Below, one piece after another: positions 281 through 44,670 of a stretch of 64,000 nt of DNA. Every line of letters starts with the position of its first letter. The first letter of the stretch is position 1. Under the pieces are notes generated by a model. That model worked only from the letters and a program-made list of their open reading frames with translations. It made no database searches and was not told the origin of the DNA. A program made the position numbers and the translations under genes. Source of the stretch: a bacterium (GTDB lineage: Bacteria > Patescibacteriota > Minisyncoccia > JACQLN01). Where the stretch lies: the NCBI GenBank assembly GCA_030697795.1, contig JAUYOV010000004.1, positions 11,831 to 75,830 of the forward strand. Reading direction: 5' to 3'.

Positions 281-975
281 CAAGAAAGCCGTAAGCCGAA
301 TTCTGTTCCAATTTTGTTTGAGCAATAGCGAAATTACAAAATTGAGAACCCTGCGAAGCCCGTTAGGGCGAAGTAGGGTAGTCCGCCTTTGCTAAAGCTA
401 CGGCGGATCTCAATTTTTTATCTGTTCGCTACGCTCACAGAAAAAATTGGAGATAATCATCTGTCTGGGATTGTTATTGCTAACAACCTCTGGCGACTCT
501 TCCTTAATAATTTAGATTACTAAGGACACGGTCTTGCACCAAGTGGGGTTTACAACTACCTAGTATTGCTACTAAATAGAATCGCGTTTGACGCGACACT
601 TTTCACCTTTAGACTCAATTTGCATTGAGCTTAGTATAGTCTCTGTTGCATAGGCTCACGGAATCAGCTGTCATCAATGAACCTATATCCAATAAAGGAC
701 ACTTTCCCTGGGCTTGAACCTAATTTTCATTAGATCTGCTCCCGGTTGCATTTCGCAACCACTTGTTTTGCCAATTTAATCTGAGTTTACGAAGCTATTA
801 AATTGAGCACCCTGCGAAGCTTGTTAGAGCGAAGTAGGGCTCCACCGTCGCTAAAGCTATGGTGGATGCTCAACTTTATATTTATTCGCTAAGCTCATAA
901 ATAAAGTTGGCAGGTGTTCGGACTTTCCTCCCCTCGATTACTCTCGGGGCGATTATCTCACTTTCTTGACAATAG
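281..975 (-). ncRNA. rnpB: RNase P RNA (bacterial type A), unusually long (~695 nt) because of two inserted ~115-nt homologous modules
   Basis: On the minus strand: 5' GUCAAGAAAGUGAG...UCGAGGGGAGGAAAGUCCGAACACC (P1/P2/P4 5' strand; compare E. coli GGAGGGGAGGAAAGUCCGGGCUCC) and 3' ACAGAAUUCGGCUUACGGCUUUCUUGACC (compare E. coli ACAGAACCCGGCUUAUCGG). The P1 pairing GUCAAGAAAG/CUUUCUUGAC closes the molecule. No real ORF lies in 170-1000. Confidence 0.7.
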
Positions 976-1006
976 ACATGATAATATTAAAAAAGATAAA
1001 AGTCAA

Positions 1007-1480
1007 TTATAACAAGCTAGCGTTTTTCCCCTTACCATCTAAGGCCTCGTTAACCAATTCATCGGCGCGTTTGTTCTGTTCGCGGGGAATAGATTTAAAA
1101 GATAGTTTTCCGAAATCAAACTTTAAATTCCAAACTTTCATAAAAAGCGCTTGCATTCTTTCTTCGTTAACTTTATATTCCCCACCTAATTGCAAAGCAA
1201 TAAGCTGACTATCCATTCTAAATTCTATATTTAAGTTTTTTGTGCCGTTTTTACCAAAAAGCTGTTTTAGTTTTTTAAGCGCGAAAATCACAGCTTCATA
1301 TTCTGCTTCGTTATTGGTAGAGTCATCCAGAACCTGATTATATTCTTTTATTCTTTTACCAGATTCGTCACAAACCACCACACCCACCGCCGATGGGCCG
1401 GGGTTACCCCTAGAACCTCCATCTGTATAAACAATTACTTTATTAGATTTCATAAAATTAATTCTGCTTGTTGTAATCAA
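1007..1480 (-). CDS. rnhA: Ribonuclease HI
   Basis: VIVYTDGGSRGNPGP...AEYEAVIFAL motifs typical of RNase H type 1. Confidence 0.85.
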   Translation of the reverse strand: MITTSRINFMKSNKVIVYTDGGSRGNPGPSAVGVVVCDESGKRIKEYNQVLDDSTNNEAEYEAVIFALKKLKQLFGKNGTKNLNIEFRMDSQLIALQLGGEYKVNEERMQALFMKVWNLKFDFGKLSFKSIPREQNKRADELVNEALDGKGKNASLL

Positions 1481-3251
1481 TAAGCTTTAATTGTATCTCT
1501 TTATTACCGTTCCATTCGTTAATATCCAACTCATAAACAATATCTAAAGTGTCGCCGATTTTAAAATCTTCAGCAAGCCCAGCTGTGTCGCGTTTGACGC
1601 GATGATTAAAAAATAAAACTGGAAATTCTTTACTTGTTTTTTTATCATGGGCGAAAATTTTCAAATGCTCGGAATTCTTCCCTAAGAAAACAAGTTTTTT
1701 GACTTCAATATTCTTACTTAAAAATTTTGGCTTAAAATTATTCATGCCAAACGGTTCAAACTTTTTAAGTGAATCCATCAAACCCCAATCAATTTCGCCC
1801 AAGTTTATTTCTGCGCTAATTTTTAATTTTTTCTGCAATAACTCTGAAGTTAAAACATTTTTAGCGTATTTATTTAAACCCAATTTTATTTTTTCTGCAT
1901 TAGAAACTTCAAAAGTGCAACCACCGGCCGCAGGATGCCCGCCATACTGTATAAATAAATCTTTAACCGAACCTAAAGCGTCTATTAAATTAAATCCCTC
2001 TATACTACGAAGTGATCCCTTGGCTTTAGTCTCGTCAACACTTTGATAAAGAATTACCGGCCGTTGATAGCGTTCAGCAATTTTAGAAGCCACCAAACCC
2101 AAAAGGTTGACCGACCAATCGGCCGAACCTTCCATAATAAAACTGGGTAATTCTGGATAAGCGTCTATCCGCGAACGGACATCTTTTAAAACTTTCTCTA
2201 CTATCTGCTGGCGCCTACGGTTATTATCGTTGAGCGATAAAACCAATTCATTTATTTTAGATTCGTCGCTACTAGTTAAAAGTTCGTAGGCTAAATTAGC
2301 GTGAGCCATACGGCTGGCCGCGTTAAGGCGCGGGCCTAAAGTAAAACCTAAAGTAAAGCTATCTAAATTAGTAGTAAGGGTTTCTAAGTTATATTTAGCC
2401 TCAACTCCGGCTGACTCCATTAATTTTCTTAGGCCAATTCTTTTGGTTTGAGCCAGAACAATTAAACCATATTTGACCATAACCCTATTTTCATCTAAAA
2501 GCGACACCATATCGGCCACTGTAGCCATAGCCACTAAATCTAAAAGCCATTTTTCTTTACCCTCCGAAGCTTTATGCGTAGGAGGGCTACCTTGAGTTGA
2601 CATCAAAGCACAATAGAGCTTGAACACTAAACCCGCCCCACACAAACCCTTAAACGGATATGTATCGCTTTCTTGATAAGGATTTACAAAAGCCACTGTT
2701 GCTGGGTTTCCTGCCACGGTTTGATGGTGATCTACCACAATCACATCCACACCTTTCTCTTTCGCCCACTCTATTTCTTTAATATTGGTGGTACCGCAAT
2801 CTAAAGTTATTATAAGCTTAGCCCCATTTGAAATTATTGATTCTAAAGCAGTTTGATTAACCCCGTGCCCTTCTTTTTGCCGATCGGGCATATACACCTC
2901 TACTGGATAATTTATGCCTTTAAAATATTCGCCTAAAACCGTGGCTGAACAGACGCCATCTACATCGTAATCAGCGTAGATAACTATTTTTTCCTTGCCC
3001 TGCGAAGCCTTGTGCGAAGCAGGGTTACCATTTATTGCCCGCCTGATTCTCTCACAAGCCTTATCCATATCTTTAAGCAAAAAAGGATCATGCAAACCGC
3101 CATCATATTTTGGATTAAAAAAACTTTCTATTTTTTCTAGCGTATTCAAACCGCGCTCAAACAGCATTTGACTGACCATAGCCGGATACTCCGAAAACTT
3201 AGCTAAAAAATCAGGCCTGGCCTGATCACTAAAAATCCATTTATATTTCAT
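1458..3251 (-). CDS. recJ: Single-stranded-DNA-specific exonuclease RecJ (DHH/DHHA1)
   Basis: DYDVDGVCS and VIVVDHHQ DHH motifs; length 597 aa. Contains two in-frame GC-rich hairpin inserts, both encoding HKAS(Q/E)GKEK. Confidence 0.85.
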   Translation of the reverse strand: MKYKWIFSDQARPDFLAKFSEYPAMVSQMLFERGLNTLEKIESFFNPKYDGGLHDPFLLKDMDKACERIRRAINGNPASHKASQGKEKIVIYADYDVDGVCSATVLGEYFKGINYPVEVYMPDRQKEGHGVNQTALESIISNGAKLIITLDCGTTNIKEIEWAKEKGVDVIVVDHHQTVAGNPATVAFVNPYQESDTYPFKGLCGAGLVFKLYCALMSTQGSPPTHKASEGKEKWLLDLVAMATVADMVSLLDENRVMVKYGLIVLAQTKRIGLRKLMESAGVEAKYNLETLTTNLDSFTLGFTLGPRLNAASRMAHANLAYELLTSSDESKINELVLSLNDNNRRRQQIVEKVLKDVRSRIDAYPELPSFIMEGSADWSVNLLGLVASKIAERYQRPVILYQSVDETKAKGSLRSIEGFNLIDALGSVKDLFIQYGGHPAAGGCTFEVSNAEKIKLGLNKYAKNVLTSELLQKKLKISAEINLGEIDWGLMDSLKKFEPFGMNNFKPKFLSKNIEVKKLVFLGKNSEHLKIFAHDKKTSKEFPVLFFNHRVKRDTAGLAEDFKIGDTLDIVYELDINEWNGNKEIQLKLIDYNKQN

Positions 3252-3258
3252 ACCAATT

Positions 3259-4440: not shown

Positions 4441-4443
4441 TGG

Positions 4444-5181: not shown

Positions 5182-5191
5182 ATATTAATAA

Positions 5192-5273
5192 ATATATCAT
5201 CCCGAGTAGCATCATGGAGAAGACTATTTATATAAATAAAGAGGCTCCATGTCGTCTGCGAGGGGTGATATAT
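5192..5273. repeat. Copy A of the ~80-nt intergenic hairpin element, a candidate REP-doublet (REPIN-like; core CCGAGCAGCATTATGGAGAAGACT...AGGCTCCATATCGTCTGCGAGG)
   Basis: One of 4 copies sharing a ~60-nt core (about 80-90% identity by eye), with terminal inverted arms (ATATATCATCCC/GGGTGATATAT) that covary between copies. Confidence 0.8.
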
Positions 5274-5289
5274 TTACGCCAATAAACAC

Positions 5290-8267: not shown

Positions 8268-8354
8268 CAATCGCATCATTCCGAGCAGCATTATGGAGAA
8301 GACTAAATTATAAATAAAGAGGCTCCATATCGTCTGCGAGGAGTGATGCGATTG
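8268..8354. repeat. Copy B of the ~80-nt hairpin element
   Basis: Same core; terminal arms CAATCGCATCA/TGATGCGATTG. Confidence 0.8.
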
Positions 8355-9691: not shown

Positions 9692-9713
9692 GGTAATGGT
9701 AAAAAATTTAAAA

Positions 9714-9793
9714 AACATTGTCCCGAGCAGCATTATGGAGAAGACTATTTTATAAAATAAAGAGGCTCTATATCGTCTGCGAGGGATAATGTT
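9714..9793. repeat. Copy C of the ~80-nt hairpin element; fills the whole adk-map spacer
   Basis: Same core; arms AACATTGTCCC/GGGATAATGTT. Confidence 0.8.
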
Positions 9794-9795
9794 TT

Positions 9796-10362
9796 TTATA
9801 ACCCCAGTACCTGTTTAATTCGCAAATGAATTTCCTCTATACTACCCATACCATCAACCTTAATCAACCTATTCGATTTTTCGTAATATTCTATAGCTGG
9901 CATTGCATCGGTATTAAACCATTCCAAACGATGACGAATTGATTCTTCGGTATCATCTTTGCGTCCGCGTTTTAAAAGCCTTGTTACTGCTTCGTCTTCT
10001 GTAATATCTATTAAAACAACTTTAATATCTACTCTACCCAACCAACTTAAAACTTCGTCTATTTCTTTGGCTTCATCTAAACGACGAGGTGAGCCGTCAA
10101 AAATTATATTTTCTCCATCTTTTAATTTATAAACTAGTTCCTTCTGCCATAAAAAAGCGGCAATCCACTCTGGGGGCAGACCACCAGAATCCACAACTTC
10201 TTTAACTTTTTTACCAGCTAAAGTCTCTTCTTTTTCTAATAAACGAAAAAGATCGCCGGCGTAAATATAAAGACAGGGTTCTATAAGCTTTTTTAAAAGC
10301 TTAACCTGCGTGCCCTTACCCGACCCCGATCTGCCTAAAACGATTATGGTTTTACTAGACAT
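9796..10362 (-). CDS. adk: Adenylate kinase
   Basis: GRSGSGKGTQ P-loop and DGSPRRLDEA; start taken at MSSKT. Confidence 0.8.
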   Translation of the reverse strand: MSSKTIIVLGRSGSGKGTQVKLLKKLIEPCLYIYAGDLFRLLEKEETLAGKKVKEVVDSGGLPPEWIAAFLWQKELVYKLKDGENIIFDGSPRRLDEAKEIDEVLSWLGRVDIKVVLIDITEDEAVTRLLKRGRKDDTEESIRHRLEWFNTDAMPAIEYYEKSNRLIKVDGMGSIEEIHLRIKQVLGL

Positions 10363-11173: not shown

Positions 11174-11211
11174 TTGTCCACTTTTCAGGCGATCACATTA
11201 AAAATGGACAA
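11174..11211. repeat. 38-nt palindromic repeat TTGTCCA-N24-TGGACAA, downstream copy flanking the PaaX-like gene
   Basis: Near-identical to the copy at 11786-11823, including the internal ATCACATT. Confidence 0.7.
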
Positions 11212-11231: not shown

Positions 11232-11786
11232 CTAATTTAAACCAAATCTACTGCGTAAAAAATTGTCATTGGTTATACTTTTGGTAACAATATAATGAAC
11301 ATACTTACCTACTCCAAAAACTTCAGCGATAAAATCAACTTCGTTTTGGCAATTGTATGGATAAATCCAAACACTTTTCTGGAAAGGTATTAAACCCAAA
11401 TTTTTCATTTTTTCTCCCAAAGCATTGCGAGCCGATTTTTTATTTTCTGGAATATCAAAAACGACAATATGCCAATCGCCATCCCATTTTTTAGCTTTTT
11501 TTATAACCAGGCTATCAAACCTATATTCTAAAATCTTTTTCTTGCCTTGTTCGGTAAGAATAATTTTGACTTTATCATCACCCTCCTCTAAAAATTCTAA
11601 AACCTTGGTTTGACGTAACCGCCATAACACCTTTGAAACTTTCCTGGAACTAACACCTTTAACCTTAATATTATAATTAAAACCTCTACCCGATCTAGTG
11701 GTCTTGACCATTGGAATGTAAAACGGATCAAAAAAATATTTGCCAAATATGGTTTTGAGAATAATTTTGGTGATTGTATAAGCCAT
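11232..11786 (-). CDS. PaaX-like winged-helix regulator with Cas2-fold C-terminal domain (paralog 1)
   Basis: W(H/R)IV(V/L)FDIPE...QKSVWIYP PaaX_C/Cas2-like signature; paralog at 50272..50844. Confidence 0.55.
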   Translation of the reverse strand: MAYTITKIILKTIFGKYFFDPFYIPMVKTTRSGRGFNYNIKVKGVSSRKVSKVLWRLRQTKVLEFLEEGDDKVKIILTEQGKKKILEYRFDSLVIKKAKKWDGDWHIVVFDIPENKKSARNALGEKMKNLGLIPFQKSVWIYPYNCQNEVDFIAEVFGVGKYVHYIVTKSITNDNFLRSRFGLN

Positions 11787-11823
11787 TGTCCACTTTTAAT
11801 GCTATCACATTTTTTATGGACAA
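11786..11823. promoter_or_regulatory. Second copy of the TTGTCCA-N24-TGGACAA palindrome, in the divergent promoter region between the PaaX-like gene and the helicase gene
   Basis: Overlaps the PaaX-like start codon; candidate operator. Confidence 0.45.
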
Positions 11824-19654: not shown

Positions 19655-19699
19655 CAAGATTAGCTTATTAGATCGTTAGCTTCCTAGAAAATTCCTAGA

Positions 19700-19729
19700 A
19701 AGCTAAAAGCTAAAAGCTAAAAGCTAAAA
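19700..19729 (+). repeat. (GCTAAAA)x4 microsatellite directly abutting the ssb start codon
   Basis: Perfect heptamer tandem; no SD present. Confidence 0.8.
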
Positions 19730-22633: not shown

Positions 22634-22791
22634 ACTTACTAAATTTCGAAATTCGAATATCGAAATCCGAAACCCTACTTCGCTAAAGCTTCGTAGGGCA
22701 CAGCAATATCACTTATTTGGATTTGCTTGCCCGCCGTAGTTTTAACAGAGGCGGGTTTCGAATTTCTGATTTCGTGCTTCGAATTTTATTT

Positions 22792-23653: not shown

Positions 23654-26044
23654 TTAGGAAAAATTTTCTTTGTTTTCCTCTTCTGTGTGTATATCTATAG
23701 CTTCTGGTGGAACTTCTGATTTTACTAAAACCTCTCTAGGTTTAGCCCCTTCACCGGGACCAATCATGCCTTGAGCTTCTAGAATATCGAGTAATCTTGC
23801 GGCGCGGGCGTAGCCGACTCTTAATCGTCTCTGGAGTAAAGAAGCCGAAGCTTTACCAGCCTGCATAATAGCTTCTTTGGCTTGGAGTAAAAGTTCATCT
23901 TCGTCACTAGAATCCATTTTATCAAAACTTACACCGGTAAGTATTGGTCTATGATCTGAGACAGCTTTTTCCAAACCAAGCGCTTCTTCTGGATTAGCAT
24001 CAGGCGCGTCTTCGGGTAGATTAGATCTTATAAACGAAACAACTTTTTTAACTTCTTTTTCCGAAACAAAAGTGCCTTGAATACGTTTGGGCTTGGGCGA
24101 ATCAGAAGTTACAAAAAGCATATCGCCCATGCCTAAAAGTTTTTCGGCGCCAGCCGAATCTATAATTGTCCGTGAATCTATTTGCGAAGCCACCGCAAAA
24201 GCTATGCGCGTGGTAATGTTAGCTTTAATTAAACCCGTAATAACTTCTACCGAGGGCCGCTGTGTGGCTAAAACCAAATGTATGCCCACCGCCCGCGCCA
24301 TCTGCGCTAAACGCACTACTGTAGCTTCTATTTCACGCCCGTAAGTAGACATTAAGTCGGCCAGTTCATCTATAATGATAACCAAATAAGGCATTAAATC
24401 GTCGCCTTTTTTAGCATCAACTTGAGAATTAAAACCGCCAATATCTCTAACTTTTTTTTCGGAAAGCAGGCTATATCTTCTTTCCATTTCTGAAGTCGCC
24501 CATTTTAAAGCCGACACCGCTTTTTTAGGCTCTACTATAACTGGGGTTAAAAGATGCGGAATACCATTATACAAAGTTAATTCAACTCTTTTAGGATCAA
24601 TCATTATAAAGCGTAAAATTTCTGGCGAATGTTGATACAGCAAATTAACAATTAACGAATTTATGGCTACGCTTTTACCCGAACCCGTGGCGCCCGCAAT
24701 AAGCAGATGAGGCATTCTGGTTAAAGCCGACCACATCGACCGGCCAGAAACATCTTTGCCTAAACCAATATTTAAAAAGTTTTTATGCTCCGAAGCCTCA
24801 AAACCCTGAAGCAAAGCTTTTAAACGCACCACCATAGATTTTTGATTGGGTATTTCTATGCCCACTAAAGATTTTCCCGGAATCGGCGCTTCTATTCTTA
24901 AAGATTCTCCGCCTAGGGCTAAAGATAAATCTTTTTGCAAAGCTAATATGCTAGCCAGTTTGACTCCAGTGGCTGGTTTTAAAGTAAACTGGGTTACCGC
25001 AGGGCCAATATTAACTTCCGACATTTCTACCGGAATATTAAAATTCTCTAAAGTTTTCTGAATAATTATGGCATTGCCCTTAATGTCGCCCGTCACCGGC
25101 ATAGAGCCTTCGTCTTCTAATAAATCTAATGGTGGAAATTTATAGTTAACGGAAAGTGGCAACACACTAAATCCGCTCGCCATATTTTCTTGTTTCTTTT
25201 TTGAAACCTCATCTGACTTGGCCATTACTGACGTACCTTGAGGAGAATTTATAGTGACAGTGTCTTCAGCCGGTTTGGGCGCTTCAACTTTTTTAGCGGT
25301 TTGAGGTAGTTTAGCTTTGCTGGCTAACGTTGCAATTTTAGTTACTAAACCTTTTTCTAAAACTAATTTTTTTTCTGGAATCATTTCGCCATTTTCGTCC
25401 GCCTTAAAAACAAATTTTTCTTTTATTTGATCTTTCAAAGGCAAACGAAAAACAATCAACATAGCCGAAAAGAAAAACGCCACAAAAAATATTAAAGAAC
25501 CCCAAAAACCAAACATCTGCCTAAACGGCCAGCCAAAATAATAACCCATTTTACCGCCAGCCTGATTTTGCGAAAATATTTCCATCAAGCCCAAAAAACT
25601 TAAAATTAGAACACTGCCCCCGATTATAGTGGAACCTAATATTTTTTTCTTGTCGGAAGTTAAAATAAAAAACGACATTAAAAACATCGTTAAAGGCACA
25701 AAGAAACTACCGGAACCAAACATATAATCGGCACCGGCTGTAATGGCTTCGGAAAAAGATCCCGACAAGCCAAAGAAAGCTAAGGTAGTTACCAAAGCCA
25801 CAGCCAGCAAAAGAACGCCCACTACGCTTCTTTTAACGCTTGATTCTAAATGGAGCCAAGAAGTTGTTCTTTTTGGCTTTTTTACTTGAGATTTTTTAAG
25901 ATTTTTAATATCCTCCTTTTCTTTTTCAGCAGGCATTAGGTTTAATCTATTACTAGAAAATAATAACATACAAAAAAGCCAAATAACAACAACGTTTTTC
26001 AGGAAGGGCGGTCCTTCCGATAGATTTCCTGCTATTTTTGGCAA
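23654..26044 (-). CDS. ftsK: DNA translocase FtsK/SpoIIIE; true start downstream of the ORF-track start, whose first codons overlap a REP
   Basis: GATGSGKS Walker A, C-terminal gamma wHTH domain, N-terminal TM segments. Confidence 0.9.
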   Translation of the reverse strand: MPKIAGNLSEGPPFLKNVVVIWLFCMLLFSSNRLNLMPAEKEKEDIKNLKKSQVKKPKRTTSWLHLESSVKRSVVGVLLLAVALVTTLAFFGLSGSFSEAITAGADYMFGSGSFFVPLTMFLMSFFILTSDKKKILGSTIIGGSVLILSFLGLMEIFSQNQAGGKMGYYFGWPFRQMFGFWGSLIFFVAFFFSAMLIVFRLPLKDQIKEKFVFKADENGEMIPEKKLVLEKGLVTKIATLASKAKLPQTAKKVEAPKPAEDTVTINSPQGTSVMAKSDEVSKKKQENMASGFSVLPLSVNYKFPPLDLLEDEGSMPVTGDIKGNAIIIQKTLENFNIPVEMSEVNIGPAVTQFTLKPATGVKLASILALQKDLSLALGGESLRIEAPIPGKSLVGIEIPNQKSMVVRLKALLQGFEASEHKNFLNIGLGKDVSGRSMWSALTRMPHLLIAGATGSGKSVAINSLIVNLLYQHSPEILRFIMIDPKRVELTLYNGIPHLLTPVIVEPKKAVSALKWATSEMERRYSLLSEKKVRDIGGFNSQVDAKKGDDLMPYLVIIIDELADLMSTYGREIEATVVRLAQMARAVGIHLVLATQRPSVEVITGLIKANITTRIAFAVASQIDSRTIIDSAGAEKLLGMGDMLFVTSDSPKPKRIQGTFVSEKEVKKVVSFIRSNLPEDAPDANPEEALGLEKAVSDHRPILTGVSFDKMDSSDEDELLLQAKEAIMQAGKASASLLQRRLRVGYARAARLLDILEAQGMIGPGEGAKPREVLVKSEVPPEAIDIHTEEENKENFS
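26000..26032. repeat. REP1 palindrome CAGGAAGGGCGGTCCTTCCGATAGATTTCCTGC at the 3' end of RAYT-1
   Basis: Further copies at 26526-26542 (inside RAYT-1), 26735-26750, 59691-59722; related sequence inside the helicase CDS at 12909-12941. Confidence 0.8.
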
Positions 26045-26706
26045 TCTTTATAGGAAAGCCAATCAAGAATAAAATCATCAAAGTCCTTTACACCGTCGAA
26101 ATAATCTGGAAAAGCTTTTTTGTTGATAATTTTTTGCTCTAATCTTTGAACACCTACATAATCAAGATAACTGGAATAATTATAACCATTTAAAAAATTT
26201 TGGGCCGCTAATTTATTTTTAATACCAGTTTCTTTCCAGTTAGGTTCAATCAACTTAATAGAATTTAAGTGTGTATAGGCAAAAATATATTTCAGATATT
26301 CATCTCTTTCAATATGTTTTGCTTGAAACCTTCCCTGAAATAAAGAACCGCTACGATCATGTCTTTTATTGAAATACATGGAATAACCGGTGGATACTTT
26401 TCCCATAAATTTAGAGAGTCCACCTTCTACAGTTTCTCTTGCAAGTAAATGGAAATGATTCGGCATTAATACATGTGCGCCTAAAGCAGTAATATCATCG
26501 CCAGTATTTACATCAAAAATATCTGGGAAGGACCGCCCTTCCAAAAGAAGCTCATTGATATCTACACGGTCATTGTTATTACAAAGATAAAGGAGCATCA
26601 AAAAACGTCTATATTCGCCTGTAGATTCAAATATAGTCCTCTTATCCACACCTCGATTGTAGATATGATAATATTCCCCTACAGAGAAAGTGAATTTACG
26701 TTGCAT
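26032..26706 (-). CDS. REP-associated tyrosine transposase (RAYT; IS200-like HuH Y1 transposase), copy 1
   Basis: GEYYHIYNRGV, HuH motif LMPNHFHLL, catalytic-Tyr helix region; flanked by REP1 palindromes. Confidence 0.7.
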   Translation of the reverse strand: MQRKFTFSVGEYYHIYNRGVDKRTIFESTGEYRRFLMLLYLCNNNDRVDINELLLEGRSFPDIFDVNTGDDITALGAHVLMPNHFHLLARETVEGGLSKFMGKVSTGYSMYFNKRHDRSGSLFQGRFQAKHIERDEYLKYIFAYTHLNSIKLIEPNWKETGIKNKLAAQNFLNGYNYSSYLDYVGVQRLEQKIINKKAFPDYFDGVKDFDDFILDWLSYKDCQK

Positions 26707-26766
26707 TCAATAATTATAATTCCTTAGGGTATTTATCGGAAGGGCGGTCCTTTTTAGGCCTAGGGT

Positions 26767-26918: not shown

Positions 26919-26927
26919 AAATTTAAT

Positions 26928-27013
26928 GGGCGTGCGGCTGAAAGGACTCCTCTGGACAGTTGGAGAAATCCGATTGAAGCTGGTGTCAGGAAATCCAGTC
27001 ACGCCCACCAATC
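26928..27013 (+). other. tRNA-like element (perfect 7-bp acceptor-type stem GGGCGTG/CACGCCC, terminal ACCA) with no canonical cloverleaf
   Basis: 86 nt between the two tRNAs. Possible degenerate class-II tRNA or tRNA-derived structured RNA; identity unresolved. Confidence 0.3.
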
Positions 27014-27017: not shown

Positions 27018-27123
27018 TCCGCGGTAACTCAGAGTGCTGACTTAAGGGCCGCAAGCCCCGGCCGGTTAGAGTGCCTAGCTGATAACTAGGAGGTCGTTGG
27101 TTCGAATCCAACCCGCGGAGCCA
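27018..27123 (+). tRNA. tRNA-Ile (anticodon GAT) carrying a ~31-nt hairpin insertion in the D-loop
   Basis: Acceptor TCCGCGG/CCGCGGA, D-stem ACTC/GAGT, anticodon arm CCTAG-CTGATAA-CTAGG, T-arm GTTGG-TTCGAAT-CCAAC, G73-CCA. Insert 27033-27063 AGTGCTGACTTAAGGGCCGCAAGCCCCGGCC. Confidence 0.5.
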
Positions 27124-30745: not shown

Positions 30746-30841
30746 AACACAGAATTTCTAATTTCCAATATCTAAATCCTAAACAATTTCTAAATTCTAA
30801 TTTTCCAGAATATATTTGGAGCATTGTGATTTGAGATTTGT

Positions 30842-32128
30842 TTAGAGTTTAGTGCTTAGGATTTGGAGTTCGATTAGAAATTTTTCTAACTCTTTTAGTT
30901 TAACCATCTCCACTTTCTCGCTGGCGCGATTTTTGACCTCCACACTTTCTTGCGCCAAAGTTTTATCGCTAACTATTATCCGATATGGAATACCAATTAA
31001 ATCAGCATCCGACAACTTTACACCGGCCGATTCTTCGCGATCATCCCATAAGACGTCAAACGTCTTTAAAGATTGATACAGCTTCTCGGCTTCTTTCTTG
31101 GTATCGCCCAATGAAACTAAATGAATTAAAAACGGAGCCACGCTCTTTGGCCACTTCATTCCAGCCTCATCGTTAAAAACTTCGGCCAGCACTCCAACTA
31201 AACGGCTCATACCTATACCATAACTGCCTAAGTATGGCGGTTTATCTTTACCATCGGAATCTTTAAAATTAATCCCCATTTTTTCGGAATAAACTGTGCC
31301 AAATCTAAATATATTTCCAATTTCAACGGAACTAGCTTCTTCAACTTGTCCACCGCATTTTGGACAAGGATCCCCAATCTTGTGAGTATAAATTTCTTTG
31401 TTTTGCGCCCAATCACATTCGCCAGCCGGCGAATTGCAGAAATAAATATTATCTTCACCTACTGGGCTTACTAACTGAAATTCATGTGTATGACCCGAAG
31501 TAAACACACCGCCCGAAGCTTCAACCACCTTAACATCTTTTAATCCAACCCTGTTAAACACTCGTAAATAAGCATCTTTAACTTCCCAGTAAAATTTGTC
31601 TAGATCTTCCCCTGTGGTATGCAAACTATATAAATCTTTCATCATAAACTCCCGCCCGCGCAATAGGCCTGACTTAGCCCGAGCCTCGTTTCTAAACTTG
31701 GTAGAAAAGTGATAAAGCTTAATCGGTAAATTTTTATAGCTTAAAGAATTTTTCCTAACTACATCTAAAAATATTTCCTCGTGTGTAAAAGAAAGTCCAT
31801 ATTCTTTTTCGTCTACCGATTTAAACTGATACATTATCTGTTTAACATTTGGATCTGCCCAACGGCCGGTTTCATTCCAAACATCGCGAGGATGAAGTAA
31901 TGGCATTAAAACTTCGGCACTGCCAATAGCATTCATTTCTTCACGCACGATTTGTTCTATTTTTTGATAAACCCGCCAACCTAAAGGCAAAAAGGTGTAT
32001 GAACCCGCCATAAGCTTGTCTACAAAACCCCCACGCAAAAGCAACCTAGCATTAGTAGCTGTTTCGTCCTTTGGATCATCCCTGCGAGTGTTTATAAACG
32101 ATTGAGAGTAACGCATAAGAGTTATCAC
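30842..32128 (-). CDS. proS: Prolyl-tRNA synthetase (short form lacking the INS editing domain)
   Basis: MRYSQSF..LLRGG..YTFLPLGWRV..IVREEMN..G..EVLMP, closely paralleling E. coli ProRS motifs. Confidence 0.85.
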   Translation of the reverse strand: MITLMRYSQSFINTRRDDPKDETATNARLLLRGGFVDKLMAGSYTFLPLGWRVYQKIEQIVREEMNAIGSAEVLMPLLHPRDVWNETGRWADPNVKQIMYQFKSVDEKEYGLSFTHEEIFLDVVRKNSLSYKNLPIKLYHFSTKFRNEARAKSGLLRGREFMMKDLYSLHTTGEDLDKFYWEVKDAYLRVFNRVGLKDVKVVEASGGVFTSGHTHEFQLVSPVGEDNIYFCNSPAGECDWAQNKEIYTHKIGDPCPKCGGQVEEASSVEIGNIFRFGTVYSEKMGINFKDSDGKDKPPYLGSYGIGMSRLVGVLAEVFNDEAGMKWPKSVAPFLIHLVSLGDTKKEAEKLYQSLKTFDVLWDDREESAGVKLSDADLIGIPYRIIVSDKTLAQESVEVKNRASEKVEMVKLKELEKFLIELQILSTKL

Positions 32129-32789: not shown

Positions 32790-32823
32790 TAGCATGAGCC
32801 ATGCGATCGCATGACTCATGCTA
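32790..32823. repeat. GCGATCGC-core palindrome TAGCATGAGCCATGCGATCGCATGACTCATGCTA (REP3 family)
   Basis: Family members at 50245-50280, 50896-50929, 52902-52931. Confidence 0.7.
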
Positions 32824-33942: not shown

Positions 33943-34099
33943 AAATGTCTAATATCCAATTACTAATATCGAATCAATGACTAATTTATAAATGCCTAAT
34001 TTTGAATTTAGTTATTAGACATTGGGATTTGATTAGAAATTATCCCTCGATTGGGCTCGGGATCCTGAGCCTGTCGAAGGAGGTATTAGAAATTGGAAA

Positions 34100-34691: not shown

Positions 34692-34720
34692 ACATGTTCA
34701 ACATTCAATGTTGAACATGT
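34692..34720. repeat. REP2 palindrome ACATGTTCAACATTCAATGTTGAACATGT, left flank of RAYT-2
   Basis: Perfect palindrome; copies at 34901-34925 (inside the CDS) and 35390-35418. Confidence 0.85.
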
Positions 34721-34734: not shown

Positions 34735-35391
34735 ATGAGAAAAACAATTTTGGCCGAAGGCGAATATTATCATATCTATAATCGTGGTGTAGAGAAAAGA
34801 AACATATTTTTAAACGATAACGATAAGTGGCGATTTATGACCCTCTTACTAATATTTCAAGGCAAGGGTCATATTGATAATATGCAACGTATTGTTAAAC
34901 TTGTTCAACATTCAATGTTGAACAAAGAACCATTTGACGACATCCTTTTGAATAAAAAGGTTGAACTGATATGTTTCTGTCTGATGCCAAATCATTATCA
35001 CCTTATATTAAAAGAAATTAAAAATGGAGGAATTTCTAGTTTTGGGCAAAGATTAGGTAACAGTTATACAAAATATTTCAACACTAAATATAAACGCACT
35101 GGACACTTATTTGGTGGAAGATTTCAAACGGTTCACATAACTCAAAATACATATCTCAAACATTTATCTTCTTATATACACAATAATCTAACAGAACTAA
35201 ATAATTGGAAAAAATTGGAAAACGAATATTTTTGGTCAAGTCTGCCAGATTATGTAAATAAAAACCGATGGGATAAGTTTCTAAACCCGGAAATAATTCT
35301 AAACCAGTTTAGGGGTAAAAATGATTATCTAAATTACATCAAAAATAATCGAAACAAAATTAAAAAACTAGATGGTTACTATATAGATTAA
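34735..35391 (+). CDS. REP-associated tyrosine transposase (RAYT), copy 2
   Basis: GEYYHIYNRGV, LMPNHYHLIL HuH motif; paralog of 26032..26706. Confidence 0.7.
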   Translation: MRKTILAEGEYYHIYNRGVEKRNIFLNDNDKWRFMTLLLIFQGKGHIDNMQRIVKLVQHSMLNKEPFDDILLNKKVELICFCLMPNHYHLILKEIKNGGISSFGQRLGNSYTKYFNTKYKRTGHLFGGRFQTVHITQNTYLKHLSSYIHNNLTELNNWKKLENEYFWSSLPDYVNKNRWDKFLNPEIILNQFRGKNDYLNYIKNNRNKIKKLDGYYID

Positions 35392-35418
35392 TTGTTCAAC
35401 ATTCAATGTTGAACAATT
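35390..35418. repeat. REP2 palindrome, right flank of RAYT-2
   Basis: AATTGTTCAACATTCAATGTTGAACAATT. Confidence 0.85.
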
Positions 35419-37967: not shown

Positions 37968-37969
37968 CA

Positions 37970-38058
37970 GCAGAAATATTATCTTGAGCAGCATTGTGGA
38001 GAAGACTATTTATATAATAAAGAGGCTCCACATCGTCTGCGAGAGATAATGTTTCTGC
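37970..38058. repeat. Copy D of the ~80-nt hairpin element
   Basis: Same core; arms GCAGAAATATTATCT/AGATAATGTTTCTGC. Confidence 0.8.
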
Positions 38059-38069
38059 TAAAACAAAAA

Positions 38070-39074: not shown

Positions 39075-39269
39075 AATAGTATAAATTACGAAATTCTAAT
39101 ATCTAAATTCGAAACAATATCTAAATATTAAATTATAATTTGGAATTTTGAACATTGTGATTTGTTTAGAATTTAGTGCTTAGTATTTATAATTTTCTGC
39201 CGACTTTATACTAACATCCTAAAACCATTTTTCAAACTAATCAAAGTATGCTAATTTAAAGTCGTTAAA

Positions 39270-40601: not shown

Positions 40602-40637
40602 TAATAAATCTCTAATATAAATATAAATAATTAAACT

Positions 40638-40712: not shown

Positions 40713-40749
40713 ACTGTGGGACTCTGTAAAATTTGATCTGGAATATATA

Positions 40750-41151
40750 TCAAATCTCCGGAATTTTGGTATGAGGCAGTCTATTATAGTCGTAGTGCCT
40801 CCGAACAACCTCGCTTTCTGGACCAGCAAATGCTTCTACTATTCTGAAATCTGGTAACAAAAACTCACTCCCTTTTCCAATAACTCTGAAATATGTCCAC
40901 TTTTCTGGTATTAAACCCTTACATACACAAGGAAAAGAAAATTGCTCTTCTCCTAATTTCTTCTCCGATACCCAGTACTTACTTGACCAATACCAAGGCG
41001 AAAAAACTGCATAAAATAAAGTAACTCCGCCTTTTTCTTTTTTGAGTTCTGACCTTATCAGATCTTCGTGAAAACATACTCCCCGCTCATGAGCGAGAAA
41101 CACAGGGCACCATATTTTAGTGCCATTAGGAAGAACTCGGTGCAACATCAT
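40750..41151 (-). CDS. Hypothetical protein
   Basis: ORF only. Confidence 0.4.
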   Translation of the reverse strand: MMLHRVLPNGTKIWCPVFLAHERGVCFHEDLIRSELKKEKGGVTLFYAVFSPWYWSSKYWVSEKKLGEEQFSFPCVCKGLIPEKWTYFRVIGKGSEFLLPDFRIVEAFAGPESEVVRRHYDYNRLPHTKIPEI

Positions 41152-41239
41152 AATTAAACCCTCCTTAGTTAAGGAACAATCCGTTAAAAATCTGCTCTGA
41201 ACGAGTATACACGCATATTTAATTTACGTCAAGGCAACC

Positions 41240-41275
41240 TAAAAACAGCCACGTTTGACGTGGCTGTTTTTGATG
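41240..41275 (-). terminator. Terminator after rpsI
   Basis: AACAGCCACGTTTGACGTGGCTGTT hairpin plus U-run. Confidence 0.6.
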
Positions 41276-41285
41276 TATCTGAAAA

Positions 41286-41807
41286 TTAACGCTTCGAGAA
41301 TTGCGGAGCTCGTCTTGCTTTTTTCAAACCATACTTGCGGCGTTCTTTTTCGCGTGGATCACGGCGCAACATTCCAGATTTTTTAAGTTTCTTTCTAAAG
41401 TTTAAATCAAATTTAACCAGAGCTCGGGCAATACCTAAACGAATAGACTCGGCCTGCGAATTTGTGCCCCCACCATTCACTTTAACCGAAACCTTAAAAT
41501 GATCGGCAGCTTTTAAACGGTTTAAAGATTCCAAAGCCATTTCTACAAAAGCCGGCGTGCTGCCAAAATAATCTTTTAATGTTTTGCCATTAACCACAAA
41601 ACCACCCTGCGCAGCGGATTCTTTAGGGTTAGTTGTAAAAATTCTAACTCTAGCGATAGATCTTTTCCTGCGCCCAACTGCCTCAAAATATTTTTTAGAA
41701 TCTTTTTTATCGGTATTAAAAACAGTGGCCTCTTCTTTTTCTTCGGCAATTACTTCTTGAACTGGTAACAACACTTCCTTTTTTTTAATTTGAGTTTTAG
41801 TAGCCAT
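41286..41807 (-). CDS. rpsI: 30S ribosomal protein S9 (with N-terminal extension)
   Basis: C-terminal ...GLKKARRAPQFSKR. Confidence 0.9.
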   Translation of the reverse strand: MATKTQIKKKEVLLPVQEVIAEEKEEATVFNTDKKDSKKYFEAVGRRKRSIARVRIFTTNPKESAAQGGFVVNGKTLKDYFGSTPAFVEMALESLNRLKAADHFKVSVKVNGGGTNSQAESIRLGIARALVKFDLNFRKKLKKSGMLRRDPREKERRKYGLKKARRAPQFSKR

Positions 41808-41813
41808 ATTATT

Positions 41814-42188
41814 TTACTCGCCTTTTAAACCTCCTTTTAACAACTTCAAGTTAGCCATAAACTTATTTCGTAATCTATTTTTAGGCAACATGCCATAAAC
41901 CGCCATTTTAAAAACCTCTCTGGAATCTCTGTCCATTTGTTCCTCTAAGGTTCTTGTTCTTATGCCGCTGGGATAACCAGAATAAACATGATATTTTTTA
42001 TCTTCTAATTTATTGCCAGTAAATTTCAACTTGTCGGTATTATAAACAGTTACTTTGCGATTAAGATCTGGCCTATTAAGCGAAAAATCGGCACTGTCTT
42101 TGCCGCGCAAAACCACAGCCACTTGAGTCGCGAGCCGACCGAGTATTTCCCCTTTGGCATCAAATTTATATTCTTTATTTGTATTCAT
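41814..42188 (-). CDS. rplM: 50S ribosomal protein L13; start at MNTNKEY
   Basis: KGEILGRLATQVAVVLRGK. Confidence 0.9.
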   Translation of the reverse strand: MNTNKEYKFDAKGEILGRLATQVAVVLRGKDSADFSLNRPDLNRKVTVYNTDKLKFTGNKLEDKKYHVYSGYPSGIRTRTLEEQMDRDSREVFKMAVYGMLPKNRLRNKFMANLKLLKGGLKGE

Positions 42189-42226
42189 ATTCGTGTATTC
42201 GCGTGCATTCGTATATTGGTGTCGCG

Positions 42227-42577
42227 TTAAACGAATTCTATAAGGCACATCCTAGCGCCATCTTTTCTAACTTCTCCTAGTTTGATTATTCTGGTATAGC
42301 CACCGTTTCTATCTTTATACTTTGGACCAATTTCTTTAACCAATTTATTAACAGCCTGTTCCGACAAAAACTTGGCAATAAGTTTTATATTAGCCAAACC
42401 ACCTTTTTTGGCTTTCGTAACAAACGGAGAAATAACTGTGCCTAATTCTTTAGCTTTGGCTTCGGTTGTTTTTATTCTGCCTCTTAAAATTAAAGCTAAG
42501 CACAGGCTTTTAAGCAAAGCCTTTCTTACTTTCTTTACCCTGCCAAATTTTCTACCTTTCTTAGATACGTGTCGCAT
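42227..42577 (-). CDS. rplQ: 50S ribosomal protein L17
   Basis: MRHVSKKGRKFGR... L17 N-terminus. Confidence 0.9.
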   Translation of the reverse strand: MRHVSKKGRKFGRVKKVRKALLKSLCLALILRGRIKTTEAKAKELGTVISPFVTKAKKGGLANIKLIAKFLSEQAVNKLVKEIGPKYKDRNGGYTRIIKLGEVRKDGARMCLIEFV

Positions 42578-42609
42578 AAATCTTATAAGACCTATCAGTC
42601 CAATCGGAC

Positions 42610-43353
42610 TTATTCTGCTTTCTTAGACTTTTTAGCTGGTTTCTTCGTTACCTCTTCTTCCGTAATTTCTATCTCACCCAAAATTTTAATATGTTCATCC
42701 AAAATATCTACAGCTTTCTTAAAAGCTTCTTCTGGCCTTATGGAGCCATCTGTTTCAATTTCAAAAATTAATTTATTAAAATCAGTTCTATCGCCTACAC
42801 GCATATTCTCGGCACTAAATTTAACCCTTCTAACCGGAGTATAAATAGCATCAAGGGCAATACTGCCGATGGCTATTTTATCTTTCTTGCGTCGTTCTAT
42901 TGGCTCGTAACCTATGCCCGGTGTAATTTCGGCTTCGATTTCTAAGGTAGCTTTTTTGTCGGTCAATGTAGCTATGTAAGCCTCGGTATTTACAATTTCC
43001 ACTTCACCGCCAACTTTTTGAAAGTCTCCCGCCGTAACTTTCCTTTCGCCTTTAACAGATAATTTTATTGTTATAGCTTCTTCTTTAAAAAGCTTAAATC
43101 TTACTTGTTTTAAGTTTAAAAGAATATGGATAACATCTTCCATCACATTGGGAATTGTAGAAAATTCATGGTCCACCCCTGTTATTTTTACAGTAGTAAT
43201 GGCAGCTCCTGGAATGGAAGACAAAAGCACCCTGCGCAAAGCATTACCTAAAGTAGTGCCATAGCCAGGGTAAAGCGAATCAACTTCTATGACCGCCAAA
43301 TTTCCTTCTTTTTTTACGATCTTTGGTGACTGTGGCAGTGAAAATTTTTGCAT
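42610..43353 (-). CDS. rpoA: DNA-directed RNA polymerase alpha subunit, N-terminal domain only (247 aa; no alpha-CTD)
   Basis: Alpha-NTD motifs; ends in a short lysine-rich tail where the CTD would be. Confidence 0.85.
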   Translation of the reverse strand: MQKFSLPQSPKIVKKEGNLAVIEVDSLYPGYGTTLGNALRRVLLSSIPGAAITTVKITGVDHEFSTIPNVMEDVIHILLNLKQVRFKLFKEEAITIKLSVKGERKVTAGDFQKVGGEVEIVNTEAYIATLTDKKATLEIEAEITPGIGYEPIERRKKDKIAIGSIALDAIYTPVRRVKFSAENMRVGDRTDFNKLIFEIETDGSIRPEEAFKKAVDILDEHIKILGEIEITEEEVTKKPAKKSKKAE

Positions 43354-43425
43354 ACTTTTTATTTATAACCGTCCAGGTTGGTCTAGTTTAGCTCGACGAA
43401 GCTGGATCGGAATTATTTAATTATT

Positions 43426-44031
43426 TTATCTTGAATAATATTCCAAAACTTTTGAAACCTCTACCGGTAGTCCAGCCAAAAATTCTTTATCGGGTATGCT
43501 GATTACTTTTCCGGAAAGCTTTTCTCTGTCTAATTCTAACCATCTGGGTGGATTAAATTTCTTTAAAATGGTTCTGGTTTCAGAAAAAGTTTTCTTGGCT
43601 TTGCTGGATTCTTTAATATCAACTAATTCACCGGGACTAACCGAATAAGATGGTGAACTAACTTTCTTACTATTTATTGTAATATGGCCATGCCCAACCA
43701 ACTGTCTGGAAGCGCGCCTAGTTGGTGCCAACCCCAATCTAAAAACTACGTTGTCTAGCCGGCGTTCTAAAAGTTCCATCATTATTTGAGGCGTAACGCC
43801 ACTTTTTTTAGAAGCTGTATCAAAATATTTTCTAAATTGTTTTTCTCTTAAGCCATAAATAAGCTTAAGTTTTTGTTTTTCGGCTTGCTGAACACCATAT
43901 TCCGAAAGACGGCGACGAATATTTTTGCCGTGCTGTCCCGGTGGATAAGGTTTGCGAACCATACCGCATTTAGCGGAATCACATAATTTATAGCCCAAGC
44001 GTCTACATTTTTTACAAGTTGATTGATACAT
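43426..44031 (-). CDS. rpsD: 30S ribosomal protein S4
   Basis: Zinc-ribbon CKKCRR, S4 domain. Confidence 0.9.
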   Translation of the reverse strand: MYQSTCKKCRRLGYKLCDSAKCGMVRKPYPPGQHGKNIRRRLSEYGVQQAEKQKLKLIYGLREKQFRKYFDTASKKSGVTPQIMMELLERRLDNVVFRLGLAPTRRASRQLVGHGHITINSKKVSSPSYSVSPGELVDIKESSKAKKTFSETRTILKKFNPPRWLELDREKLSGKVISIPDKEFLAGLPVEVSKVLEYYSR

Positions 44032-44100
44032 GTTTAGCTTTCTAGCTTCTTAGCTTTCTAGCTTCTTAGGATTTAACTAAAAAGCTAATAAACTAACATC

Positions 44101-44541
44101 CTAGACTCTACGCGGTTTAGGCGGTTTAGGACCATTGTGTGGCACCGGAGTTACGTCTTTTATAGAAGTAACATTTAAGCCCTGTCCCACCAAAGCCCTA
44201 ACGGCGGACTCCCTACCCGAACCAATGCCTTTAACAAAAACCACCACATCCTTTAAGCCAACCTTTTTCATTTTTTCTCCCAAAGTTTCGATTATTCTAT
44301 TAGCAGCGTATGGTGTAGCTTTTCTTGGACCCTTAAAACCCAAAGCACCGGCCGAAGATTGAGCAATTAAATTTCCCCCGGCATCTGTAAAACTAACTAA
44401 AGTATTATTGTAACTAGCTTGAATATAAACTCTACCCTTTTCTACAGCGCCAACTTTACGGCTCTGTACTGGAGCCACTTTAGCTTCGCTAGAAGCCTCA
44501 CCTGTTTTATCTTCTTTTTCTATAATTCTTTTTTTACCCAT
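44101..44541 (-). CDS. rpsK: 30S ribosomal protein S11
   Basis: Conserved S11 core. Confidence 0.9.
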   Translation of the reverse strand: MGKKRIIEKEDKTGEASSEAKVAPVQSRKVGAVEKGRVYIQASYNNTLVSFTDAGGNLIAQSSAGALGFKGPRKATPYAANRIIETLGEKMKKVGLKDVVVFVKGIGSGRESAVRALVGQGLNVTSIKDVTPVPHNGPKPPKPRRV

Positions 44542-44670
44542 CCTTCGCTCCTCGCTTCGCTCAGAGCTACGGATGGCAAGCCATCTTTTTTACTGAAGGA
44601 ATCCAATAGCCTTTTGTGGCGAAGGATGTCCTTCCGTAGCTTTAGCGAAGGAGGACTACATTAATTAATT

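Follow-up and report, generated by a model that had tools for sequence, protein, structure and literature searches.

Hairpin repeats in a Patescibacteria contig as probable copies of a 30-nt REP-like mobile DNA element

The hairpins considered here lie in a 64,000-nt stretch of a patescibacterial contig (JAUYOV010000004.1, positions 11,831 to 75,830, of GenBank assembly GCA_030697795.1; Patescibacteriota, Minisyncoccia), referred to as the window. They are real and are not the product of chance, and the preliminary description of them is corrected below. Judged from their sequence and placement, the hairpins are probably copies of a very small (30-nt), non-autonomous mobile DNA element resembling the repetitive extragenic palindromes (REPs). 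This assignment is based on a fixed 30-nt block that recurs in unrelated sites and in both orientations, on the covariation of its stems, and on the occurrence of inverted doublets and within-genome subfamilies, while the lack of strand bias and the clean in-frame insertion of 30 nt into proteins favor a repeat that is mobile at the DNA level over an RNA or regulatory motif.

The unit reads YCCKCC-TTCGC-YRAR-GCTWC-GGMGGR-CAAG over 30 nt and is thus an imperfect palindrome of the short (~20-60 nt) kind with a consensus common to its copies. Its outer stem has 6 bp (YCCKCC/GGMGGR) and is followed inward by a conserved internal loop of 3x3 nt (TTC/TWC), by an inner helix of 3 bp (GCY/RGC), and by a tiny apex; a 4-nt tail, CAAG, extends unpaired from one end only. 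Conservation spans positions -6 to +23 and nothing beyond in 124 instances among the genome-collection matches listed, and no conserved target is found in their flanks. This collection, which holds one genome per species, was scanned for the exact 14-mer TTCGCTAAAGCTAC, so that loci were ascertained by sequence, and at least 120 matches were listed. The consensus of the exact-14-mer set is YCC[G/T]CC-TTCGCTAAAGCTAC-GG[C/A]GG[G/A]-[C/T]AA[G/A], and five or six of the six flanking positions pair in 89 of 126 instances among the matches listed. In a viral-contig control, most 14-mer matches lack stems (mode, two of six positions paired) and reflect chance.

The preliminary description had portrayed an invariant 14-nt loop displayed for recognition on an arbitrary stem. 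The loop varies, however, with TTTGCTAAAGCTAC, GTCGCTAAAGCTAT, TTCGCTAAAGCTTC, and TTCGCTAAAGCTAC present in the window and the exact 14-mer in only one of four simple copies. A scan of metagenome contigs with the pattern TCCGCC-N14-GGCGGACAAGCC, which removes the bias of a fixed loop, returned at least 123 instances, and the loop fits TTCGC-YRAR-GCTWC in most of the 123 among the matches listed; the commonest loop there, TTCGCCAAGGCTAC (22 instances), is three times commoner than TTCGCTAAAGCTAC (7 instances). Nor are the 14 nt entirely loop, as part of them forms the covarying 3-bp inner helix, in which the loop-free set has GC at positions 4-11 in 62 of 76 cases, CG at positions 5-10 in 50 with 7 changes on both sides, and CG or UA at positions 6-9 in 33 and 22, respectively. 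The TTC and TWC triplets between the two helices are unpaired and conserved. The idea of variable stems that always pair was upheld by 122 instances picked by loop alone, in which 79% of outer-stem cells are paired, vs 55.6% in shuffles and 32-44% in slid registers, and in which changes on both sides occur at all six pairs (160 cells vs 58 expected). The stem is nonetheless not arbitrary, as its consensus is YCCKCC/GGMGGR. What remains of the proposed recognition loop is a conserved unpaired sequence between compensating helices, which has the look of a recognition site for a structure-specific protein. Several window copies have an expanded apex, with CCTAACGG in that at 345-378, a 7-bp hairpin in that at 48341-48379, and 17 nt in that at 44538, and the constant features of the unit are therefore the outer stem, the TTCGC and GCTWC boxes, and the tail.

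As an explanation of these repeats, a chance origin, low complexity, or an artifact of assembly or adapters has a next to negligible probability and is refuted by the controls given below. It could draw on the 14-mer itself, which with two or fewer mismatches occurs four times in the window (388-401(+), 847-860(+), 22679-22692(+), and 44636-44649(-)) against 0.82 expected, an excess of only ~5-fold and a count that was reached in 3 of 100 shuffles, and on the origin of most matches in metagenome-assembled genomes (MAGs). The 14-mer alone is thus only weakly above the chance expectation against which the preliminary description had proposed to check it, but once stems are required the family is clearly non-random. 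All four sites have six complementary flanking bases, the stems covary, and shuffled loci, when scanned for loop plus stem, yielded 1 match in 850 kb. A covariance model (A3, R1) built solely from the sequences of other genomes and run unfiltered over the 64-kb window detects the window copies with E-values of 6e-9 to 2e-3, with the copies at 345-378 and 806-839 scoring more weakly. The unit is also present in complete isolate genomes (Maricaulis, locus L076) and in assemblies that come from many projects and were made with many assemblers, and it reads in-frame within conserved proteins.

Where five hairpins had been claimed in the window, at least 11 copies were found. The scored copies, together with two degenerate AT-stem candidates and one of two composites in which several units are nested, are as follows.

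322-452 (+): composite 1 (C1 in reverse complement, B1, and A1 within TTGAG.../...CTCAA), directly 3' of the RNase P RNA gene
345-378 (-): copy C1, CCCTAC-TTCGC-CCTAACGG-GCTTC-GCAGGG; 13.6 bits, E=0.15, weak alone; just 3' of RNase P RNA
382-411 (+): copy B1, TCCGCC-TTTGCTAAAGCTAC-GGCGGA plus tail; 35.6 bits, E=3e-8; DNA fold -6.7 kcal/mol, z=-3.0; antisense to the RNase P RNA gene and ~40 nt 3' of it
421-441 (+): degenerate A1, TCTG-TTCGCTACGCTCA-CAGA; identified by eye, no covariance-model match at E<=10, tentative
806-839 (-): copy C2, CCCTAC-TTCGC-TCTAACAA-GCTTC-GCAGGG; 16.2 bits, E=0.024; inside RNase P RNA
841-870 (+): copy B2, TCCACC-GTCGCTAAAGCTAT-GGTGGA; 31.4 bits, E=6e-7; within the RNase P RNA gene, antisense
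880-902 (+): degenerate A2, ATTTA-TTCGCTAAGCTCA-TAAAT; identified by eye, unscored, tentative; inside RNase P RNA
2556-2586 (-): second recJ copy, CCCTCC-TACGCaTAAAGCTTC-GGAGGG-TAAA; 23.8 bits, E=1.2e-4; encodes ~SPPTHKASEG
2994-3024 (-): recJ copy, CCCTGC-TTCGCaCAAGGCTTC-GCAGGG-CAAG; 28.2 bits, E=5.5e-6; sense, encodes NPASHKASQG
22673-22702 (+): CCCTAC-TTCGCTAAAGCTTC-GTAGGG-CACA; 37.8 bits, E=6e-9; spacer upstream of recA
22726-22755 (-): CCCGCC-TCTGTTAAAACTAC-GGCGGG-CAAG; 37.5 bits, E=8e-9; spacer upstream of recA
44538-44583 (+): expanded-apex copy, CCATCC-TTCGC-TCCTCGCTTCGCTCAGA-GCTAC-GGATGG-CAAGCC; 19.8 bits over 44538-44577, E=2e-3; rpsM-rpsK spacer
44625-44655 (-): TCCTCC-TTCGCTAAAGCTAC-GGaAGGA; 31.2 bits, E=6.5e-7; rpsM-rpsK spacer; the only window copy with the exact 14-mer
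48341-48379 (-): GCCTAC-TCCGC-CGAAGTAACTTCG-GCTAC-GAAGGC-TAAA with a 7-bp apical hairpin; 22.5 bits, E=2.8e-4; DNA fold -9.2 kcal/mol, z=-3.45; intergenic

Four of the five hairpins first claimed are present at 382-407(+), 841-866(+), 44538-44583(+), and 44630-44655(-), whereas the third, placed at 22663-22688, exists but lies 10 nt away at 22673-22698. Their claimed settings, a non-coding RNA gene and the spacers of ribosomal-protein genes and recA, are confirmed as RNase P RNA, the rpsM-rpsK spacer, and the spacer upstream of recA. The 11 scored copies are dispersed through the 64 kb, with seven in spacers, two in RNase P RNA, and two in recJ, and 10 of them have a second copy within ~400 nt. 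Eight of the 11 form four inverted pairs, two head-to-head with gaps of 3 and 1 nt (C1 with B1, 3 nt apart, and C2 with B2) and two tail-to-tail with gaps of 23 and 41 nt (22673 with 22726, 23 nt apart, and 44538 with 44625-44655), while the two recJ copies lie ~400 nt apart in direct orientation. Copy C1 has an expanded apex and an A.C stem mismatch, and its place in the family is supported by its paralog at 806-839 and the alignment of the two composites. These composites (322-452 and 783-912; repeat family D14) are ~130 nt each and 88% identical, and they differ by at least five compensatory stem changes, such as TCCGCC/GGCGGA vs TCCACC/GGTGGA and TCTG/CAGA vs TTTA/TAAA. Subfamilies exist within the genome, as CCCTRC...GCTTC is common to five window copies; the GCTTC-ending variant also occurs in other genomes, and the loop variant GTCGCTAAAGCTAT recurs at three collection loci (L097, L098, and L139).

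At the rpsM-rpsK spacer, the annotated AUG of ribosomal protein S11 (rpsK start at 44541) sits in the mRNA-strand 3' arm (GGAUGG) of hairpin 44538-44583, and the S11 of the window extends ~28 residues beyond the family model at its N terminus. The hairpin repeat may have supplied or shifted the rpsK start codon.

The copies at the left end of the window are associated with the following RNA gene.

447-959 (-): RNase P RNA, bacterial class A (RF00010, 78.7 bits, gathering score 100)

A first alignment to RF00010 (399-739, 68 bits) was displaced by an insert, and an alignment restricted to 436-966 recovered P1-P4 with a 242-nt insertion at model positions ~77-97. The P1 pairing GAGAUAAUC/GAUUAUCUC and the GAGGAAAGUCCG motif can be read from the sequence. 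Composite 2 (~783-912), inside the gene, folds as a single long helix (z=-4.7) that extends a peripheral helix, and its paralog at 322-452 lies just beyond the 3' end. The RNA falls below the gathering score (68-79 vs 100 bits) because its P7-P9 region carries an insert of ~130 nt made of nested hairpin repeats, and it would therefore be missed by default annotation. At the gathering threshold, an Rfam scan of the whole window reports only tRNAs. With E<=1, Rfam returns for window positions 1-1500 only the RNase P RNA and one chance match, with none over the copies at 345-411 and 806-870.

Insertion of the same block is best resolved within proteins. Compared with structure 8y30_A, the RecJ of the window has 10-residue gaps at NPASHKASQG (exactly 10) and at ~SPPTHKASEG, the second with an extra 2-residue gap close by. 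Gaps of exactly 10 residues at the element are likewise seen in Tgt (locus L010) against 2ash_A and in LigA (locus L048) against 4glx_A, and RlmN (locus L080) has a 7-residue gap at the element in a variable region. When the conserved 30 nt are excised by hand from tgt and ligA, the register of the homologs is regained, from which it follows that the inserted block is the conserved block and that no target was duplicated. Terminal inverted repeats with a target-site duplication are accordingly not what is seen, and no duplicated target is left in Tgt, LigA, or RecJ. Roughly 40% of the instances in other genomes lie inside long open reading frames (ORFs), as delimited there by crude longest-ORF calls, in both orientations (25 sense and 29 antisense among the matches listed). 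These in-ORF copies use only four stop-free frames, which give (S/P)AFAKATA(D/G)K, PSLKLRR, (P)AVALAKAG, and RRSFSEGG, and it follows that they are translated and not spliced, so that bulge-helix-bulge introns were rejected. Integron attC sites and CRISPR repeats were also considered and were rejected on architecture. The hosts include DnaE, DnaG, LigA, Tgt, RlmN, HsdM, and ribonucleotide reductase, all but Tgt, RlmN, and LigA being identified by eye.

These placements bear directly on the view taken in the preliminary description, in which the hairpin works at the RNA level, as a functional motif (bound by a protein or an RNA, or serving as a terminator or mRNA-stability element) that selection recruited at many transcripts. 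A conserved internal loop on covarying helices would suit such a motif, copies within RNase P RNA must fold as RNA, the copy at 44538 puts the rpsK start codon in a stem, and many REPs are found in transcripts, where they serve as RNA elements (PMC3733652). The strand bias relative to transcription that had been named beforehand as a check is not found, with 7 sense and 4 antisense copies in the window and the near-even split among in-ORF copies elsewhere. Moreover, copies occur in coding sequences in four frames and both orientations, the same 30 nt are found within unrelated enzymes of different phyla, no T run follows the hairpin, and Rfam has no match at E<=1 over the two stretches named above. 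An RNA motif is consequently regarded as improbable.

The 30-nt unit was found in more than 10 bacterial phyla among the matches listed, with hosts taken from record titles. Within the Patescibacteria these are Saccharibacteria, Parcubacteria, Komeilibacteria, Azambacteria, Roizmanbacteria, and Moraniibacteria, and beyond them Verrucomicrobiota, Planctomycetota, Bacteroidota, Alpha- and Gammaproteobacteria, Nitrospirota, Acidobacteriota, Bdellovibrionota, Dependentiae, Elusimicrobiota, Desulfobacterota, and Lentisphaerota. Run on 100 loci of other genomes, the covariance model finds 113 copies, mostly singlets, with ~10 doublets within 100 nt that are mostly tail-to-tail and of no fixed spacing, and one tandem array. 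A head-to-tail tandem array with a 31-nt period and at least three units before a run of N was observed in a Babeliaceae MAG (locus L040, 5464-5555). Identical odd stems recur in loci L024, L040, and L106. The unit is absent from the INPHARED phages and from E. coli genomes and gives only marginal partial matches in PLSDB plasmids; true copies are present on some IMG/VR contigs (e.g., L127, L128, and L181), and L181 has, by eye, the ORFs of an ordinary tailed-phage or prophage fragment. An origin from the small dispersed repeats (SDRs) or highly iterated palindrome (HIP1) of cyanobacteria, which had been suggested by AT-rich heptamer repeats and GCGATCGC cores, was dropped because the RpoA of the window lacks a C-terminal domain, the relatives nearest to a window protein are from Parcubacteria, Pacebacteria, and Patescibacteria MAGs, and matches extend across many phyla.

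This distribution also speaks to the possibility that the hairpin is a structural DNA site maintained by the host for a nucleoid, gyrase, or repair protein and spread by recombination or gene conversion instead of transposition. E. coli REPs do bind integration host factor, gyrase, and Pol I (PMC12306157), and the in-gene copies are conspicuous in the replication and repair genes for RecJ, DnaE, DnaG, and LigA. Gene conversion, however, needs flanking homology, of which the flanks show none; a host function would hardly call for the identical 30 nt across more than 10 phyla when E. coli genomes, plasmids, and cultured phages lack them; and copy density varies widely among genomes. A host-maintained site thus appears highly improbable.

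In the preferred reading, that of a REP-like mobile element, the 30-nt unit has been copied as an exact block into unrelated sites, whether spacers, RNase P RNA, or in-frame positions in protein genes, and in either orientation, with neither target duplication nor conserved target and often as inverted doublets, its stem pairing being preserved by compensatory changes. The hairpin would form in single-stranded DNA, and a structure-specific enzyme acting in trans, with a Y1/HUH transposase of the IS200 or REP-associated tyrosine transposase (RAYT) type as the likeliest candidate, would recognize its conserved internal loop plus tail and carry out the cutting or joining. Copies in genes would survive only if their 30 nt were read through without a stop, and copies in RNase P RNA would survive as the extension of a peripheral helix. 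Y1/HUH enzymes move DNA without target duplications. Such an enzyme is suggested here by the absence of target duplication together with the structure-specific site, and the window encodes two proteins of this kind.

26032-26706 (-): Y1/HUH RAYT-like gene 1 (NF047646, E=1.9e-9)
34735-35391 (+): Y1/HUH RAYT-like gene 2 (PF01797, E=1e-9)

The two proteins are 36% identical, and each gene carries its own palindrome on both sides as well as an in-frame internal copy, which occupies the same alignment position in both, after the YHIYNRG motif and before the HUH motif. The palindrome of gene 1, GGAAGGGCGGTCCTTCC, is found at 26002-26018, 26526-26542, 26738-26754, and 59693-59709, and that of gene 2, TGTTCAACATTCAATGTTGAACA, at 34695-34717, 34902-34924, and 35393-35415; neither belongs to the 30-nt family. 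A third homolog (L283, 6886-7683) has the same arrangement with yet another palindrome sequence. In three homologs that are 56-58% identical to gene 1 (L363-L365), the conserved EGRSF peptide is encoded by the palindrome GAAGGNCGGTCCTTC, an inverted copy of which lies just upstream of the gene; the assignment of the GRSFSE peptide of this Y1 clade to CGTAGCTTTAGCGAA proved wrong at the three loci, where GAAGGNCGGTCCTTC encodes it. No description of an internal cognate REP within a transposase gene was found in the REP/RAYT literature examined. As these RAYT-like genes have palindromes of their own, REP/RAYT-type systems with palindromes of similar size exist in these genomes.

Several observations weigh against a Y1-driven REP-like element. 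Its cognate transposase was not found: both RAYT-like genes of the window have other cognate palindromes, and tblastn with both proteins places a RAYT-like gene near only one of 360 element-bearing loci (L283), again with another palindrome, so that the arrangement defining a REPtron, a RAYT flanked by the same REP class, is not seen at these genes. No neighbor recurred when the 1,501 ORFs of 102 element-bearing loci were clustered all against all, a chimeric profile in which the Y1 variable region was swapped for element-encoded peptides retrieved no Y1 homolog with such a peptide, and a related-loci scan of viral contigs for a cognate RAYT returned one irrelevant locus. As its terminal tag the family has YTTR (read as CAAG on the opposite strand) and not the GTAG needed by characterized RAYTs. 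No orientation bias relative to genes is seen, although lagging-strand insertion of the IS200/IS605 type might give one. Collection counts and taxon proportions, finally, are not quantitative, as they derive from sequence-ascertained loci and at least 120 matches listed.

The missing enzyme is among the points that could favor copying from RNA or another template, by reverse-transcriptase retro-insertion or templated patch repair, over Y1 cut-and-paste. Such copying would also accommodate the absence of target duplication and of a conserved target, and CGTC-type REPs likewise have no known dedicated transposase (PMC3733652). No reverse transcriptase, however, was found among the ~40 of 64 window ORFs scanned, there is no poly-A or other priming signature, and inverted doublets with covariation are hallmarks of REP/REPIN systems (REPINs being REP doublets), which are handled as single-stranded DNA (PMC3116915). 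Template copying is therefore considered unlikely, and a REP-like element moved by a Y1/HUH enzyme is still preferred.

REPs are imperfect palindromes of 20-60 bp that occur as inverted doublets and are tied to RAYT genes (PMC3116915). They have been divided into two superfamilies defined by their tags, GTAG and CGTC, and their intragenic copies are often in replication and repair genes (PMC3733652). Like REPs and REPINs, the 30-nt family is an imperfect palindrome with an unpaired terminal tetranucleotide and many copies per genome, has head-to-head and tail-to-tail inverted doublets and compensatory-stem subfamilies, and shares its genome with RAYT-like genes. Its layout matches that of the GTAG-3 (E. 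coli-type) REPs, in which an outer stem and non-complementary trinucleotides precede a short loop flanked by GC (PMC3733652). Its terminal tetranucleotide, in contrast to the GTAG superfamily, is C/T-A-A-G/A (YTTR on the other strand), with GTAG present only inside the internal loop. The CGTC type has a terminal CGTC, an 8-9 bp stem starting with AT pairs, a 4-5 nt loop, and a CCA tail (PMC3733652), and none of these features is present in the 30-nt consensus. Further differences from REPs are that no RAYT flanked by the family was found, that its consensus is common to more than 10 phyla among the matches listed whereas REP classes are usually species- or genus-specific, that its copies are common within coding sequence and also occur in RNase P RNA, and that it is essentially absent from the plasmid, phage, and E. 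coli collections.

In-frame insertion into unrelated housekeeping genes, notably those for replication and repair, with addition of a short peptide, and additional copies in RNA genes and spacers are shared with intragenic REPs (PMC3733652) and with Rickettsia palindromic elements (RPEs; PMC10969869). RPE-1, however, is ~150 bp (PMC10969869), and intragenic REPs are mostly dimers encoding 20-30 residues (PMC3733652), whereas each single unit of the 30-nt family adds exactly 10 residues. The host range is also far wider than Rickettsia or Opitutus. The peptides FAKAT, VALAK, SFSEG, SLGEG, YGGQ, and LRRT are absent from the text supplementary tables of PMC3733652, including its listing of REP-encoded amino acids, and a literature search for the exact DNA sequence and the encoded peptides found no prior description of the family.

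Two further classes of small elements invite comparison. The ends of IS200/IS605 elements and of their miniature derivatives, the palindrome-associated transposable elements (PATEs), are hairpins recognized in single-stranded form, and no target is duplicated on insertion. The 30-nt family shares this mode of insertion; these elements, however, require a pair of dissimilar subterminal hairpins, along with a conserved target tetranucleotide 5' of the left end, whereas the family consists of a single 26-nt hairpin with no conserved flank. The SDRs of the Nostocaceae are reportedly dispersed repeats of 21-27 nt that Elhai and colleagues argued in 2008 to be mobile and that are nested in other repeats. 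The 30-nt family is likewise very small and dispersed, and SDRs have been reported solely in the Nostocaceae (PMC5861425).

A bolder proposal, which is possible but doubtful, is that the CAAG-tailed family is a third REP tag type beside GTAG and CGTC, forming one horizontally spreading family active across more than 10 phyla, including the tiny genomes of the Patescibacteria, and moved as an exact 30-nt block by an unlinked trans-acting enzyme. If so, few transposable units known would be smaller or more widely distributed, and essential proteins would repeatedly have gained 10-residue insertions from it, as RNase P RNA would have gained helix extensions. Mobility across phyla would make the family a near-minimal transposable unit, one hairpin with a 4-nt tail, and a clean substrate for an enzyme search. 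It would also explain many 10-residue inserts and spurious "hypothetical proteins" in MAGs (FAKATADK, VALAKAG, RSFSEGG, and GYGGQA), as well as structural RNA genes that fall below detection thresholds, and would signify that the streamlined genomes of Patescibacteria carry and tolerate selfish palindromes in essential genes. The covariance model can be used to mask the elements in annotation and to flag insertions for structure-function work.

The remainder of the window carries housekeeping genes, namely recJ, pgk, tpiA, ruvX, map, adk, a uvrD/pcrA-like helicase gene, rpoD, dnaG, and rpsF-ssb-rpsR, along with recA, ftsK, mreBC, a class II aminoacyl-tRNA synthetase gene, frr, and an rpsM-rpsK-rpsD-rpoA cluster, in which RpoA has 247 residues and no C-terminal domain. 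A tRNA-Ile(GAU)-like gene at ~27018-27122(+) has the acceptor TCCGCGG/CCGCGGA, the anticodon loop CUGAUAA, and a good T-arm followed by GCCA, with an apparent ~31-nt GC-rich hairpin insertion (…GGGCCGCAAGCCCC…) in its D-loop; it scores only 30.1 bits with Rfam, from 27049, and receives no ARAGORN call. Between tRNA-His and this gene, a segment of ~85 nt (26925-27012(+)) starts with GGGCGUG and ends with CACGCCCACCA, an acceptor-like stem plus CCA, and has no Rfam match at E<=1.

The spacers of the source genome are crowded with distinct hairpin repeats. A repeat of ~60-86 nt (…GAGCAGCATTATGGAGAAGACTA…TAAAGAGGCTCCATATCGTCTGCGAG…; families D3 and D9) resembling MITEs occurs intergenically at 5190-5275, 9711-9796, 8283-8340, and 37986-38043 with 81-86% identity. 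Small palindromic families are located at 32790-32823, 50246-50279, and 50896-50929; at 11174-11211 and 11786-11823; and at 19676-19705, 44058-44087, and 45289-45318. One of them reads TAGCAYGAG…GCGATCGC…CTCRTGCTA, another, TTGTCCAC…GTGGACAA, stands on both sides of a PaaX-like gene (11232-11786), and a third reads TTAGCTTCCTAG…CTAGAAAGCTA. AT-rich blocks of ~50-130 nt made of short TCTAA/ATTTC-like units (families D1, D5, and D15) lie downstream of several genes, at 30753-30882, 33944-34041, 39084-39206, and 62242-62292.

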